A DNA stretch of 32,000 nucleotides from an uncultured Clostridia bacterium (GTDB lineage Bacteria > Bacillota > Clostridia > TANB77 > CAG-508): the NCBI GenBank assembly GCA_948676835.1, contig CAPOZU010000004.1, positions 44,551 to 76,550 of the forward strand. Direction: 5' to 3'. The notes under the pieces were generated by a model, which had not been told where the DNA came from, did no database searches, and saw only the letters and a program-made list of their open reading frames with translations. The stretch's first letter is position 1. The number at the start of each line of letters is the position of its first letter. Made by a program: the position numbers and the translations under genes. Shown here in pieces: positions 23,542 through 29,928 of the stretch.

Positions 23542-23577
23542 TTATCAACCTCTTTTCTTACCTTTTTATACACTTGC

Positions 23578-23607
23578 ATTATATAATAAAAATGACCAAA
23601 AAAGCAA
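23578..23607 (-). promoter_or_regulatory. Candidate gyrA-proximal promoter
   Basis: On the minus strand: TTGCTT (23607-23602), 18 nt spacer, TATAAT (23583-23578). Confidence 0.35.
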
Positions 23608-23711
23608 GAAAAAAAGCGGTTTTTTATAAAAAATTTACCCTATTTTTTATTAAATTTTACAACTATTTTTCTATATTCAAATCTTATACTTTACTCTTTT
23701 ATTGAACTGGT

Positions 23712-24434
23712 TTAAGCTAACTTTTCAGCTAATCTTAGTTCTTCTTTTGATATATCAAAATTTTTTCCATTATTTTTTATTAAGCTATGTATATTTTGTA
23801 TTTTTCTCGCTTCATTTATTGTATTTTCTAAAGGCATAACTTTATTTAAATAGTTTTCAATATTTTTATAAGATTTTTCCATTCCAGAAAAATCTTTGCT
23901 TTCATAAAAGATTTTCCAGTTATCGCAATATTTCTCTAATTTTTCTACTGATTTTAATTGATTCGTAAGTGTTTCTTCAATCTTGTTACTTATTGAATTT
24001 ATTATAGTATTTTTACTTTGCTTTAATATCTTGCTAATATTATTATTTATTAAATTTTTGCTTTTTGCTAAATTTATGGTAAAATCTAATAATTGAGAAA
24101 CACTATCTAAAATTCCTCCATTTTTTACTGCTAATTGGACCTGTGAAATATTTTCAAAGTTTCCTGTAACAACTCCTGTAATGCTTTTTCCCATTTCTAT
24201 TCCTGAATTAATTATTTGTTTTACTCCTTCTTTAAAACCTTGCTCTAAAATTACATTTTTAATATCTATTACTTGATTTTCTATTAAATTCGGTAGTGCC
24301 GCTTTAAGTCCTATATCTAATGCAGAATTAATAGTTTTACCAAGGTTACTTTCTAAAAAACTTTTTTGATTTTCATATAAATTAACACTGTATTTATTTT
24401 CCATCTCTCTACTTATTTCTAATCCATTTTCCAT
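23712..24434 (-). CDS. Hypothetical soluble protein (240 aa), last gene of the VirB4 operon
   Basis: The ORF starts 4 nt after the ParA-like gene. No TM segment or signal peptide. No family named with confidence. Confidence 0.65.
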   Translation of the reverse strand: MENGLEISREMENKYSVNLYENQKSFLESNLGKTINSALDIGLKAALPNLIENQVIDIKNVILEQGFKEGVKQIINSGIEMGKSITGVVTGNFENISQVQLAVKNGGILDSVSQLLDFTINLAKSKNLINNNISKILKQSKNTIINSISNKIEETLTNQLKSVEKLEKYCDNWKIFYESKDFSGMEKSYKNIENYLNKVMPLENTINEARKIQNIHSLIKNNGKNFDISKEELRLAEKLA

Positions 24435-24438
24435 ATTT

Positions 24439-25587
24439 TCACACTCCTTCTATTACTTTTTGAAAAATCTTTTCATAATCATCCTTGTCTTTAAAAATAT
24501 TTTTATTTATTATTAAATTATATTTTTCACTATAATCGATTTCTCCTATTATTCTCTTTTCTGAATATATTTCATTTAATACTCTTTCATTAATTTTATA
24601 CTTATTAGCTTTATTAAAAATAATATTTATTTTTTCTTCTTGAATTTCATAATCTTTAATTATCTTTTCTAAATATGTATTTGCCTTTTTTACCTCTGAC
24701 AAATTTGGTTCAATTAAAAAAACGATTTTAGAAGAATAAGAATAAATAAAATTATTAATTTTACTTGTAAGATCAGATGATGTATCTATTATTATAAAAT
24801 CAAATTCATTTTTTAATTCTTCTAAACAACTTATAAAAAATGAATAATCTATAAATTCATAATTATTTATAAAATTATCTAAAGAACTTAAAACATAAAA
24901 ATTATTATGATATTTTGTAATTGCACTTAATATACGGTCTTTATCATAATTTTTAGGATGTTTGCTAATTCCTAATATAGTATTAATACTTTTATTAATA
25001 AAATCACAATCTATTAAAAGAACTTTATCTTTTTTACTCATATATTTTGAGAATAATATTGATGTTATACTTTTTCCTACGCCATAACTTCCAGAAAAAG
25101 ATATTATATTATTTATATAAAAATTTTCTTTTTTTTTTTCTTTGTTTATTGGTTCTTTTTCAATTCTATCTATAGTTCTTTCTTGGTATATTATTTTCTT
25201 AAAGTCTTCTATATTTTTTTTAATATCTTTATTAGACATTTCTTTATTTTTCAGACCTAAAAAGAACATTTCATAATTATCTAAGTAATAAATTTTATAT
25301 ATTTCATTACTATTTAAAAAAATCTCTATTTTATCATCTTTTTCTTTTAAAAATACTACTATTTCAATATCTTTATTAATTTCTAATATTCTAGAAATTA
25401 ATAAATTAAATTCCATTTCAATTATTAAATTATTACTTAATATCACTCCTTCTATATCTCTTTTTTCTTCTAAAATTTCTAAAATTCCTTCTTGATATTG
25501 AACATCTTTTCCTATAACTTCAAAATTTGTTTCCTTCTTTAATCTTTCATTAATTTCCGGAATACCTGTAGCAGTAATTATTTTCAT
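24439..25587 (-). CDS. ParA/MinD-superfamily ATPase with an N-terminal receiver-like domain (CpaE/TadZ-like architecture)
   Basis: P-loop SFSGSYGVGKS, VLLIDCDF (the D-x-D motif of MinD/ParA) and FDFIIIDTSS (Walker B) are present. The N-terminal region of about 110 aa has an alternating beta/alpha pattern without an obvious phospho-acceptor context. The start abuts the VirB4 stop. Confidence 0.65.
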   Translation of the reverse strand: MKIITATGIPEINERLKKETNFEVIGKDVQYQEGILEILEEKRDIEGVILSNNLIIEMEFNLLISRILEINKDIEIVVFLKEKDDKIEIFLNSNEIYKIYYLDNYEMFFLGLKNKEMSNKDIKKNIEDFKKIIYQERTIDRIEKEPINKEKKKENFYINNIISFSGSYGVGKSITSILFSKYMSKKDKVLLIDCDFINKSINTILGISKHPKNYDKDRILSAITKYHNNFYVLSSLDNFINNYEFIDYSFFISCLEELKNEFDFIIIDTSSDLTSKINNFIYSYSSKIVFLIEPNLSEVKKANTYLEKIIKDYEIQEEKINIIFNKANKYKINERVLNEIYSEKRIIGEIDYSEKYNLIINKNIFKDKDDYEKIFQKVIEGV

Positions 25588-28052: not shown

Positions 28053-29312
28053 TTATAATCTTTTATCTTCTTCATCTCTTCCTGATAAATCATTATAATA
28101 TTTTTCACTTCTTCTGTATTCATATTCATTTTTATATATAGCATCTTCATTTATTTCTGTTTTGTTTTCATATTTACTTTTATAATTTTTATTTATCTGT
28201 CTATCTTCTGGTGTGATCCTATTTGCTTTTATTAATTTAATTATTATATAAAATGGAAGTATAAAAAAAGCTATTCTCAATCCTATTGATAAAAGAATTA
28301 ACACACCAAAAAAAATGAGATTAATCATACTTTCTTTATCCATTTTATCTAAATTTTGAAAAATATATTTAAGTTTTTCAGTATTAATATTAATACCAAT
28401 ATTATTATGAGTTTCTCTTCCAATATTTTCTTCGTCGCTTTCATAAGTATTATATACTTTATCCTCACTCTTTTTATATGTTAATAAATCTTCAATATCT
28501 TCATTTTCATAAAGAAAATCACAATCTTCTATATAATTTTCTTGTATATAAACTTTTCTTAAGTTATTAGCTGTTTCAATATTTTTTATATCATATATTG
28601 TTTTTATATTATTATCATATAAAGATAATGTTTCTATTTGTGAATTTTCTGGTAATATTATTTCTTCTAATGTGCCACTTGTTACACATAAATATTCTAA
28701 ATCCTCATTTTGAGATAAATCTAAGTTTCTTAATTTATTTCCTCCAAAAGATAAATATATTAATTCATTACAATTACTTAAATCTAACTCCTGAATTGTG
28801 GCATTTTGAGTATTTCCTGCTCCCATCACTAGATACATTAATTTAGGGCAATTTTCTACATTTAGTTCTTCTAAATGTGTATAAGTAAGATTTATACTTT
28901 GCAATTCTATATTATTGGAAAAGTCTACATGTTTTATATTATTTGCATTTACTATTTCAATATTTTTTAATTTTGTATTTTGGGAGATATCTATATCATA
29001 AATATCAGAATAATATACACTAAAATTTTCCAAATTAATTAACTTTTCTAATCCCTTCAAGTCATATATTTTATTATCTATATCACCACAGAATAAAGTT
29101 TTTACACTTTTTAATTCATCCTCTGTAACAACATAATTAATATTTCTGTCATTTATATTATTGTAATTTGTATTGTTTAAAGTATCTATTATTGATTGAT
29201 AAAATAACTCATCTACAAAGTCTTTATTCCCTGGTGTTGCTTCTACTTTTGTTATAAATATTAAAATTAAAAACATTGTTAATAAAAAAATTTTTAAAAT
29301 TTTATTTTTCAT
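28053..29312 (-). CDS. Leucine-rich-repeat protein with a signal peptide, a C-proximal TM anchor and a cytoplasmic tail
   Basis: The signal peptide is MKNKILKIFLLTMFLILIFITKVEA. About 8-9 LRR-like units follow (LxxLxLxxN pattern, e.g. LKNIEIVNANNIKHVDFSNNIELQSINLTYTHLEELNVENCPKL). The TM segment is LIFFGVLILLSIGLRIAFFILPFYIIIKLI. SD AAGGGGA. Confidence 0.8.
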   Translation of the reverse strand: MKNKILKIFLLTMFLILIFITKVEATPGNKDFVDELFYQSIIDTLNNTNYNNINDRNINYVVTEDELKSVKTLFCGDIDNKIYDLKGLEKLINLENFSVYYSDIYDIDISQNTKLKNIEIVNANNIKHVDFSNNIELQSINLTYTHLEELNVENCPKLMYLVMGAGNTQNATIQELDLSNCNELIYLSFGGNKLRNLDLSQNEDLEYLCVTSGTLEEIILPENSQIETLSLYDNNIKTIYDIKNIETANNLRKVYIQENYIEDCDFLYENEDIEDLLTYKKSEDKVYNTYESDEENIGRETHNNIGININTEKLKYIFQNLDKMDKESMINLIFFGVLILLSIGLRIAFFILPFYIIIKLIKANRITPEDRQINKNYKSKYENKTEINEDAIYKNEYEYRRSEKYYNDLSGRDEEDKRL

Positions 29313-29343
29313 TTATTATCCCCTTTTTATAATATTTAAAAAT

Positions 29344-29372
29344 ATTATATCTATAATTTAAAAATTTGTAAA
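29344..29372 (-). promoter_or_regulatory. Near-consensus sigma-A promoter of the LRR/VirB4 operon
   Basis: On the minus strand: TTTACA (29372-29367), 17 nt spacer, TATAAT (29349-29344). Confidence 0.6.
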
Positions 29373-29886
29373 AATTTCCTATAGTTTTTCTGTATATATT
29401 TTTTAAAAAAGTCCATAATACTATTATAAAATTTATATTAGCCTAACTTAGAGTTCAATTATTGGTGTTTAATTTGTATATATAAAAAAACTCGCGCTTT
29501 TTTATATATAGAATTAAATATTAGTAATTGGAGTTCGAGTGAAGATATAAAATATTGAAATGTACATTTTAGTATTTTATGTTGGAAACAAGGAGTATAT
29601 TATTTGCTATATTAGCTTAAAAATTTATTATATATCTTTAATTATATATATAATAATTAAAATTAGGTTTTTATAGTATATAATATATTTGAAGTCGTGA
29701 TTGTTCTTTTATTCGTAAAGGTTTATTTTTAGTCCTACATGGATGAAGATAGATTTTGAGGGTGGATTAACAATCTAGCAACTGATTAATATATGTGCTT
29801 CCTGGCTTTTTTGTATAGTAATATGCAATAGGTCAAAAAAGTATGTATATTGGTTTTAGCTGAAAGTTAATATAAGTTTTATCGAT

Positions 29887-29922
29887 GATAAAAATCCCTA
29901 AGGAGAATATCCTTAGGGATTT
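29887..29922 (-). terminator. Rho-independent terminator immediately after gyrB
   Basis: Perfect 13 bp stem: aaatccctaagga (29892-29904) pairs with tccttagggattt (29910-29922). A U-run follows on the minus strand. Confidence 0.8.
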
Positions 29923-29928
29923 ATCATT

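Follow-up and report, generated by a model that had tools for sequence, protein, structure and literature searches.

Between the DNA gyrase genes gyrB and gyrA of an uncultured Clostridia bacterium lies what is very probably one half of a type IV secretion system (T4SS) that is old, fixed in the chromosome and vertically inherited in the TANB77 clade, together with a structured RNA. We analysed these genes in a 32,000-nucleotide (nt) stretch of DNA, here called the window (order TANB77, family CAG-508; assembly GCA_948676835.1, contig CAPOZU010000004.1, positions 44,551 to 76,550). The interval is built in three layers: a conserved four-gene operon with its own promoter, a candidate RNA gene of ~455 nt, and slots that hold variable cargo. 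The evidence comes from gene content, homology, synteny, purifying selection, RNA structure and conserved promoters.

gyrB closes the origin cluster dnaA-dnaN-recF-remB-gyrB, and gyrA follows 6.4 kb away. The first-pass annotation of this DNA had placed five co-oriented genes in that space. The coordinates of the open reading frames (ORFs) confirm the layout, with five minus-strand ORFs of 419, 201, 589, 382 and 240 amino acids (aa), and the assignments to leucine-rich repeat (LRR), VirB4-like and ParA-like families held up in Pfam and NCBIfam profile matches. The annotation was also right that gyrB and gyrA are usually adjacent elsewhere. This is the rule in outgroups: at the next-closest GyrA loci (up to 62% identity) gyrB mostly lies directly upstream, the exceptions being Negativicutes and some Paenibacillus.

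A caveat had been that the contig might be mis-assembled across the interval. We read 21 independent contigs that encode an identical GyrB; two were displayed and have the same arrangement, and 18 more were grouped as similar. The origin context on these contigs runs gidA-trmE-jag-yidC-rnpA-rpmH, dnaA-dnaN-recF-remB-gyrB, the same five genes and gyrA. Because independent contigs with identical GyrB show the same arrangement, mis-assembly of the window across the interval is excluded.

Two gene groups on either side of gyrA

The 201-aa and 589-aa ORFs are, by their profile matches, predicted to be the two halves of one split VirB4, a TrsD-like part and an ATPase part. The ATPase part matches Pfam P-loop_TraG at 69.8 bits (cut-off 25.8) and the PDB VirB4 entry 4AG5 (E 7e-42). 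It also covers positions 185-731 of the NCBIfam CD1110 VirB4 family at 272 bits, under the family cut-off of 325, and the shorter ORF aligns to the beginning of the same family (Table 1). The true start of the N-terminal gene is likely a non-canonical codon, ATT at 27939-27937, 7 nt past a GGAG ribosome-binding site. The near relative L090 has ATA here (~9400-9430), and in L090 an in-frame stop excludes starts further upstream while the N-terminal residues are still conserved.

The two remaining genes of the operon encode a ParA/MinD-type protein and the conserved protein p240. The former resembles TadZ/CpaE, evolves fast and has been lost in several relatives; its homologues adjoin VirB4 in L083, L086 and L211. 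p240 has 2119 homologues, and homologues close distant modules of VirB4, ParA, T2SSE and T2SSF genes. Searches with p240 of Pfam, NCBIfam, PHROGs and PDB profiles gave only noise, and its AF2 model (pLDDT 69.7) had no Foldseek match in PDB (best TM-score ~0.25).

Beyond gyrA, on the plus strand, a second group of five genes is predicted to encode further T4SS components; housekeeping genes of dnaC/dnaD type lie between it and the first group. The VirD4-type coupling protein matches Pfam TrwB_AAD_bind (37.9 bits, cut-off 20.5) and TraG-D_C (29.5 bits, cut-off 22). The 109-aa VirB2-like protein has a signal peptide and two hydrophobic helices, as would suit a pilin, and its identity between species ranges from 52 to 83%, 22 residues being invariant. 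PF18895 (T4SS_pilin) is found in 16 of 16 orthologues of the pilin (best E 2e-6) and TrbC/VirB2 in five. These matches are all sub-cut-off, with 16.2 bits for the window copy where PF18895 requires 26.6, and the family profile had no match among PDB sequences. TrbL/VirB6 is found in 7 of 14 orthologues of the 290-aa polytopic family (best E 4e-4), and PrgI in 4 of 15 orthologues of the 98-aa protein, which has two membrane helices (best E 0.016). Both matches lie below the curated cut-offs, and the VirB6-like and VirB3-like assignments are backed by synteny and by homology to L085, described below. The 94-aa ORF had no match in PHROGs. The whole block is syntenic in relatives. Between its VirB3-like gene and the DnaD-domain gene the window has 794 nt (18208-19001) with no ORF longer than 46 aa, where relatives have ~80-110 nt.

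L085 is a metagenomic locus with a relaxase and MobC. It carries VirB3-like, unsplit VirB4, pilin, coupling protein, Peptidase_M23 and VirB6-like genes in one cluster, and its proteins are 23-43% identical to their homologues in the window. Since L085 clusters all the homologues together, the two gene groups flanking gyrA are best read as the halves of one T4SS of conjugative ancestry. These homologues in a relaxase-bearing element also indicate that the genes between gyrB and gyrA descend from mobile DNA.

We found no T2SSE or T2SSF homologue, and so no TadA/CpaF ATPase or TadB/C platform, at the locus in the window or in clade relatives. Both genes do occur in the more distant modules L083, L211 and L212. 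In these uncultured lineages and in L086, a split VirB4 sits in chromosomal modules with ParA-like, T2SSE and T2SSF-like genes and a p240 homologue. These modules are T4SS/Tad-like hybrids, and two of them adjoin a Com_YlbF gene.

Table 1. Features of the window, in order of position; dN/dS was computed between the window and its near relative L090.
Feature	Position	Strand	Description	dN/dS
Cna_B/SpaA-domain surface protein	5855-8083	-	742 aa	
Second T4SS half (predicted)	14673-18207	+	94-aa membrane protein, coupling protein 579 aa, pilin 109 aa, VirB6-like 290 aa, VirB3/PrgI-like 98 aa	
Small membrane protein	14673-14957	+	94 aa	
VirD4-type coupling protein	14959-16698	+	579 aa; N-terminal membrane helices, Walker A/B motifs	
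DnaD-domain protein and DnaC-like helicase loader	19002-21012	+	324 aa and 340 aa; Pfam DnaB_2, IstB_IS21; NCBIfam PRK06835, 338 bits	0.086 (DnaC-like)
gyrA	21106-23541	-	811 aa	0.05
gyrA promoter (predicted)	23578-23607	-	-35 TTGCTT 23607-23602, 18-nt spacer, -10 TATAAT 23583-23578	
p240	23712-24434	-	240 aa; all-helical, cytoplasmic; last gene of VirB4 operon	0.13
ParA/MinD-type protein	24439-25587	-	382 aa; extra N-terminal domain; Pfam CbiA, PDB MinD	0.27
VirB4 ATPase part	25588-27357	-	589 aa; Walker A GTSGAGKS, Walker B IYLDE	0.076
VirB4 N-terminal part, TrsD-like	27367-27972	-	201 aa as listed; NCBIfam TrsD/TraD family and CD1110 VirB4 positions 1-141	0.13
Hairpin and T-run	27972-28005	-	after LRR gene; conserved in L090	
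VirB4 operon promoter (predicted)	28017-28045	-	TTGACT-17-TAATAT	
LRR surface protein	28053-29312	-	419 aa; signal peptide, leucine-rich repeats, C-terminal membrane anchor; Pfam LRR_4	0.54
LRR gene promoter-like site	29344-29372	-	TTTACA-17-TATAAT; back to back with RNA promoter; conserved between window and L090	
RNA promoter (predicted)	29390-29419	+	-35 CTGTAT 29390-29395, 18-nt spacer, -10 CATAAT 29414-29419; ~8 nt before closing helix	
Candidate structured RNA	29427-29881	+	~455 nt; 16-bp closing helix, five long stem-loops rich in A-U and G-U	
Terminator hairpin (predicted)	29892-29922		13-bp stem; common to convergent gyrB (-) and structured RNA (+)	
gyrB	29929-31854	-	641 aa	0.05

Conservation and transcription of the interval

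A search with GyrA, taking one genome per species, returned 34 loci at 76-90% identity. All are metagenome-assembled genomes (MAGs) of uncultured gut Clostridia, one of them Candidatus Scatovivens, which GTDB-based work places in order TANB77, family CAG-508. Where the contig suffices, the relatives have the order dnaN-recF-gyrB, VirB4 N-terminal gene, VirB4 ATPase gene, p240 and gyrA, with or without the ParA-like gene before p240; after gyrA come dnaC/dnaD-like genes and then the block of VirB3, VirB6, pilin and coupling protein. The exception is L033, in which VirB4, p240 and gyrB are missing within ~9 kb upstream of gyrA. In L033 and L015, a coupling-protein gene was not seen after the pilin gene. 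The core of the interval recurs in 120 metagenome contigs, and a deeper lineage (L081; GyrA 67%, VirB4 50% identical) is arranged in the same way to either side of gyrA. In L083, whose GyrA is also 67% identical, VirB4 lies upstream of gyrA with ParA-like, T2SSE and T2SSF-like genes and the p240 homologue.

We compared substitution rates between the window and L090 (dN/dS in Table 1). Synonymous divergence (dS) was 0.39-0.57 for all compared genes except p240 and the LRR gene; the VirB4 genes are at 0.54-0.57, gyrA and gyrB at 0.39-0.47. Over 28 loci, VirB4 identity follows GyrA identity (Pearson r = 0.95). Gut metagenomes contain thousands of VirB4 family members, and the closest plasmid-borne VirB4 is 34.7% identical. 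By these comparisons the gyrB-gyrA arrangement appears ancestral and vertically inherited in the TANB77/CAG-508 clade, because synteny is clade-wide, dS is like that of the flanks, the identities correlate and the borders show neither repeats nor a tRNA.

The first-pass annotation had instead seen an insertion that rewires gyrA. In its strongest form this would be a recent integrative and conjugative element (ICE) or genomic island between gyrB and gyrA, driving gyrA by read-through. The interval genes are indeed of conjugative origin, their GC content is 17-24% against 28-31% in gyrA and gyrB, and a scan of the 170-nt gap between p240 and gyrA found no terminator-like hairpin, as had been noted. 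However, the whole window is AT-rich (17-31% GC), and its other weakly conserved genes also have 23-26% GC. The same interval is found in every relative with enough contig, through the 34 species genomes, the 120 metagenome contigs and the lineage with GyrA 67% identical, a distribution that the annotation had itself named among the things that would weaken its reading, and its dS equals that of the flanks. Nor did we find the parts of a mobile element. There is no relaxase in any ORF of the window (Pfam and PHROGs; Pfam matches were considered up to E 0.001 for genes outside the interval and up to 0.1 for the five interval genes), no integrase (Pfam) and no tRNA or tmRNA (ARAGORN), and direct or inverted repeats sought at the interval borders were AT-rich chance matches only. 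As to membership of a conjugative element, relaxase, integrase and attachment-site repeats are thus lacking in the window, and the distribution is not patchy. We regard a recent insertion as extremely improbable, and the gyrA promoter, considered next, also argues against it.

Promoter-like matches are no commoner than expected of DNA so rich in AT (74 observed, 83 expected), so only conservation lends weight to any such site. The gyrA promoter has that weight. About 30 relatives have CTTGCA(A/T)-17-TATAAT before gyrA, with the end of the -10 element mostly ~36 nt (33-43) from the ATG and further upstream (57-92 nt) in 4 of them. The motif is kept irrespective of what precedes it: p240, a convergent gene of ~116 aa, or unrelated genes spanning 4-7 kb. 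Because it is conserved whatever the upstream gene content, gyrA is predicted to be transcribed from its own promoter, which had been called a weak candidate and is conserved in sequence and position in ~30 species. Read-through from the upstream operon may occur, although nothing requires it, and a promoter kept at a fixed distance from the start codon does not support the earlier reading of gyrA as rewired.

The interval had also been described as one five-gene operon. The genes are co-oriented as stated; the single transcription unit is doubtful. With a hairpin and T-run after the LRR gene and a separate promoter ahead of the VirB4 N-terminal gene, the five are unlikely to form one operon. 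The hairpin is either the terminator of the LRR gene or an attenuator in the leader of the VirB4 operon. The VirB4 operon promoter aligns with TTGAC(A/T)TTT...GTAATATAAT before the VirB4 N-terminal gene of relatives that have no LRR gene. In L010, L023, L024, L028, L034 and others, a TGTCGAA...TGTCGAA repeat abuts the -35 element of this promoter on its upstream side, ~60-90 nt before the N-terminal gene, and looks like an operator; L003 and L004 have two DnaA-box-like TGTGGATAA sites in its place. The site that had been annotated as a promoter at 29372-29344 is present, matching at 11 of 12 positions, and stands before the LRR gene.

The LRR gene itself is absent from all 34 species genomes and is carried only by the same species and L090. 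From its distribution and its dN/dS it appears to be lineage-specific, fast-evolving cargo inserted between two older promoters. In L001, the closest species genome, the same slot holds an OmpR-type response regulator and a histidine kinase (2143-5097), a two-component system that could regulate the adjoining secretion operon or RNA. A second variable slot, before gyrA, is occupied by assorted genes in other species.

A candidate structured RNA gene beside gyrB

The gap after gyrB measures 616 nt, where ~520 bp of non-coding DNA had been annotated, and ~455 nt of it appear to encode a conserved structured RNA on the plus strand. The gap is 90% identical between the window and L090, against a 35-40% difference at synonymous sites, and ~400 of its aligned positions are conserved in relatives whose synonymous sites are saturated. 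With nhmmer, each of the 16 relatives whose contig shows the region had one copy per locus, and L081-L087 had none. In L081 the gap after gyrB, searched for an analogous RNA, folds with z = -2 to -3 only and gave nothing with nhmmer.

The aligned sequences fold strongly and on one strand. RNAalifold gives -91.1 kcal/mol with 118 pairs, 64 of them compensatory, on the plus strand, against -3.5 kcal/mol and 18 pairs on the gyrB-sense strand. In the alignment 96.6% of cells are paired, compared with 82.7 ± 0.6% in shuffles (none of the 500 reached the observed value) and 35-46% in slid controls, and the covariation score is 0.461 against 0.197 and 0.07-0.10, respectively. The window copy alone folds to -144.6 kcal/mol on the plus strand, with z = -11.6, where the minus strand reaches z = -3.9. 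We assigned the plus strand because many pairs are invariant G-U; the base composition of the RNA is extreme (~7% C, many G-U pairs).

A motif scan of metagenomes returned 120 contigs, with the RNA on each. Where flanks are present the RNA converges on gyrB and diverges from the VirB4 N-terminal gene, with one exception, L164 (5265-5644), in which a full copy lies between a radical-SAM gene and znu-like zinc-uptake genes. The 106 unique RNA sequences have a mean identity of 73%; 96.9% of their cells are paired, and covariation is seen at 80 of the 118 pairs.

The RNA promoter (TTGAAT or TGTAT, 18 nt, CATAAT) stands at the same spacing in all 14 aligned relatives, and the 3' end of the RNA abuts the terminator hairpin shared with gyrB. 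The first-pass annotation had noted this 13-bp hairpin, and it is present both in our terminator scan, where it was flagged on the plus strand, and in the sequence; relatives have hairpins of differing sequence in its place. gyrA and the DnaC-like gene also converge, and the 11-bp hairpin that separates them (21068-21093) resembles a second bidirectional terminator.

The block could instead be a DNA element, such as an oriT, a single-strand origin or a protein-binding array. Its neighbours are secretion genes that derive from conjugation, folding on one strand would be equally in keeping with single-stranded DNA in transfer, and DnaA-box-like TGTGGATAA repeats lie nearby in L003 and L004. We nevertheless consider this quite improbable: the many invariant G-U pairs and the G-U to A-U exchanges occur on one strand only, a conserved -35/-10 pair stands at a fixed distance from the first helix, and an intrinsic terminator marks the 3' end. 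In addition, no relaxase is nearby and one copy lies in an unrelated context (L164).

No Rfam family matched anywhere in the window at gathering thresholds, and Rfam 15 searched at E up to 10 over 29250-29990 gave only short noise matches of up to 22 bits. A divergent RNase P RNA or tmRNA was considered and rejected, there being no covariance-model or ARAGORN signal. The RNA had no match in the plasmid or phage collections. Together these results make 29427-29881 a candidate gene for a large structured RNA, previously undescribed. Like OLE, GOLLD, ROOL and raiA in Rfam, it is several hundred nucleotides long and lineage-restricted, with multiple helices, a terminal closing helix and strong covariation. 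It differs from them in having no Rfam 15 match, in its ~7% C, in its fixed place between gyrB and the VirB4 operon and in its absence from the plasmid and phage collections. Large structured RNAs with such covariation support are rare finds. In the literature we found no prior description of such an RNA, of a TANB77 T4SS, or of gyrB and gyrA flanking VirB4.

Integrity, relatives and possible role of the secretion system

Several observations weigh against an intact, functional T4SS linked to the RNA. The VirB4 ATPase frame is broken near residue 250 in L006, L008, L014, L022 and L030, and that of the coupling protein between its membrane and ATPase domains in L001, L003, L008, L018, L030 and L031. 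Such frame breaks in MAGs, or the absence of the ParA-like gene, could mean decay in parts of the clade. Pfam recognised no VirB8-like protein and no peptidoglycan hydrolase (VirB1, CHAP or M23) in the window; L085 carries its Peptidase_M23 gene in the corresponding place. T2SSE and T2SSF, companions of VirB4 in more distant lineages, are absent here, and the small membrane proteins match Pfam families only below curated cut-offs. A relaxase could be encoded elsewhere in the genome, as our search covered the 32-kb window. The L164 copy, away from both gyrB and VirB4, may mean that the RNA is unrelated to secretion; because it sits in an unrelated context, the link between RNA and secretion is positional. 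Finally, we infer the function and the substrate of the system, as well as pilus assembly, from sequence.

Some of these observations would suit a decaying remnant of an old conjugative element, kept only because it is wedged between essential genes: the lack of relaxase, hydrolase and T2SSE/T2SSF partners, the loss of the ParA-like gene in several species, and the broken VirB4 ATPase and coupling-protein frames in some MAGs. A remnant is at odds with purifying selection on VirB4 that matches that on the DnaC-like gene (0.076 against 0.086), with intact Walker motifs, with the strongly conserved pilin and with the synteny of both halves over deep divergence. The pieces on either side of the recurrent frame breaks are also both conserved, and the breaks could be further gene splits, programmed frameshifts, decay or assembly errors. 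We give the remnant only a small chance, and retain a T4SS maintained by selection as the preferred reading.

The closest analogue appears to be the origin-proximal T4SS of Patescibacteria (Quinonero-Coronel et al. 2025, PMC12102498). Both systems have a monoderm-type (MPF-FATA) VirB4 with a separate TrsD-like N-terminal gene, and the putative VirB3-like, VirB6-like and VirB2-like pilin genes (PF18895) of the window have counterparts in Patescibacteria. Both are chromosomal and vertically inherited with no relaxase nearby (relaxases being scarce in Patescibacteria), and both lie near the origin, the patescibacterial genes often beside dnaA and dnaN, in hosts with reduced genomes. In contrast, the host here is a member of the Clostridia (TANB77), and the coupling-protein gene, remote in Patescibacteria, adjoins a pilin gene that is single and not part of an array. 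The cluster here is also split in two around gyrA and dnaC/dnaD, and with it go a TadZ-like ParA gene, p240 and the gene for a large RNA. According to a report cited in PMC12102498, T4SS genes are essential for the epibiotic growth of one cultured member of the Patescibacteria.

Monoderm conjugative systems (pGO1 TrsD/TrsE, CTn2 CD1110 and L085) share homologous VirB3-like, VirB4, pilin, coupling-protein and VirB6-like genes with the TANB77 system. The TrsD-like split recalls pGO1, and the best NCBIfam match is the CD1110 VirB4 of CTn2. They differ from it in that no relaxase, MobC, peptidoglycan hydrolase or integrase was found in the window, and in that the genes here are a fixed chromosomal feature throughout a clade. 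The order has another conserved, clade-specific surface machine, a Tad pilus cluster conserved order-wide (Kim et al. 2024, PMC11680825), and TadZ/CpaE-like ParA proteins are common to the two. The Tad cluster lies at another locus and has CpaB, TadA, TadB/C and type IV-like pilins, whereas no T2SSE or T2SSF is present here; the study does not mention VirB4, a T4SS or gyrase. It describes TANB77 as uncultured, with reduced genomes, and as linked to cancer immunotherapy response.

If the preferred reading of a domesticated T4SS is correct, the system would descend from a conjugative element of monoderm bacteria and form a membrane channel with a short VirB2-type pilus, powered by VirB4 and VirD4. 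It might serve contact-dependent exchange other than the self-transfer of a mobile element, namely the export of protein or DNA to neighbouring cells, with the LRR protein as a candidate adhesin.

The traffic could also run inwards, in a DNA-uptake (competence) machine like Helicobacter ComB or archaeal Ced/Ted. Small-genome bacteria benefit from uptake, and distant homologous modules adjoin a Com_YlbF gene. Archaea are reported to import DNA through relaxase-less chromosomal T4SSs with VirB2-like pilins (PMC9905601). On the other hand, the window contains no ComEC, DprA or similar gene, and the gene for a coupling protein of VirD4 type has been conserved beside that for the pilin. ComB and Ced/Ted are not known to have such a coupling protein. 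Uptake is in our view unlikely, and we keep to export as the working assumption.

Any role of the RNA is likewise deduced. A more speculative proposal, which we hold to be rather doubtful, is that the RNA and the relaxase-less T4SS form one functional unit that is key to dealings with neighbouring cells, as the T4SS is for Patescibacteria, with the RNA as a dedicated regulator, a scaffold or a transported substrate. Such a unit would sit at the replication origin, amid the genes for gyrase and the helicase loader. If true, bacteria would have domesticated a conjugation machine a second time, independently, and in this case along with a large RNA belonging to it.

Bacteria of the order TANB77 are prevalent in the guts of humans and animals, and none has ever been cultured. 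A clade-wide T4SS that is under purifying selection among essential origin-proximal genes would be a strong candidate for a core means by which these cells deal with others, and would extend to them a pattern so far described for Patescibacteria, that of conjugation machines turned chromosomal organelles in small-genome bacteria. The separation of gyrB and gyrA is here old and stable and does not appear to have displaced gyrA's own promoter.

Three observations concern other genes. Immediately beyond the window, on the upstream side of gyrB, gene calling divides recF into two overlapping ORFs (52 and 311 aa) in the window's species (L088/L089, 8634-9705) and in L090 (4362-5433), which suggests a conserved frameshift or split in recF. 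At the far end of the window, six ORFs in 586-3486 and 8421-11988 (239, 672, 123, 362, 154 and 369 aa) had no significant match in Pfam or PHROGs, two of them having marginal PHROGs matches of unknown function; NCBIfam identified none of the 672-, 362- and 369-aa ORFs, the three that were run. The six look cytoplasmic, and either acidic or coiled. The PHROGs search covered eight ORFs in 586-11988 and gave nothing beyond marginal matches. Lastly, a TG/GT dinucleotide run (~8112-8354; CVCVCVCVCV in one frame) lies upstream of the gene for the Cna_B/SpaA-domain surface protein and could switch its expression on and off.

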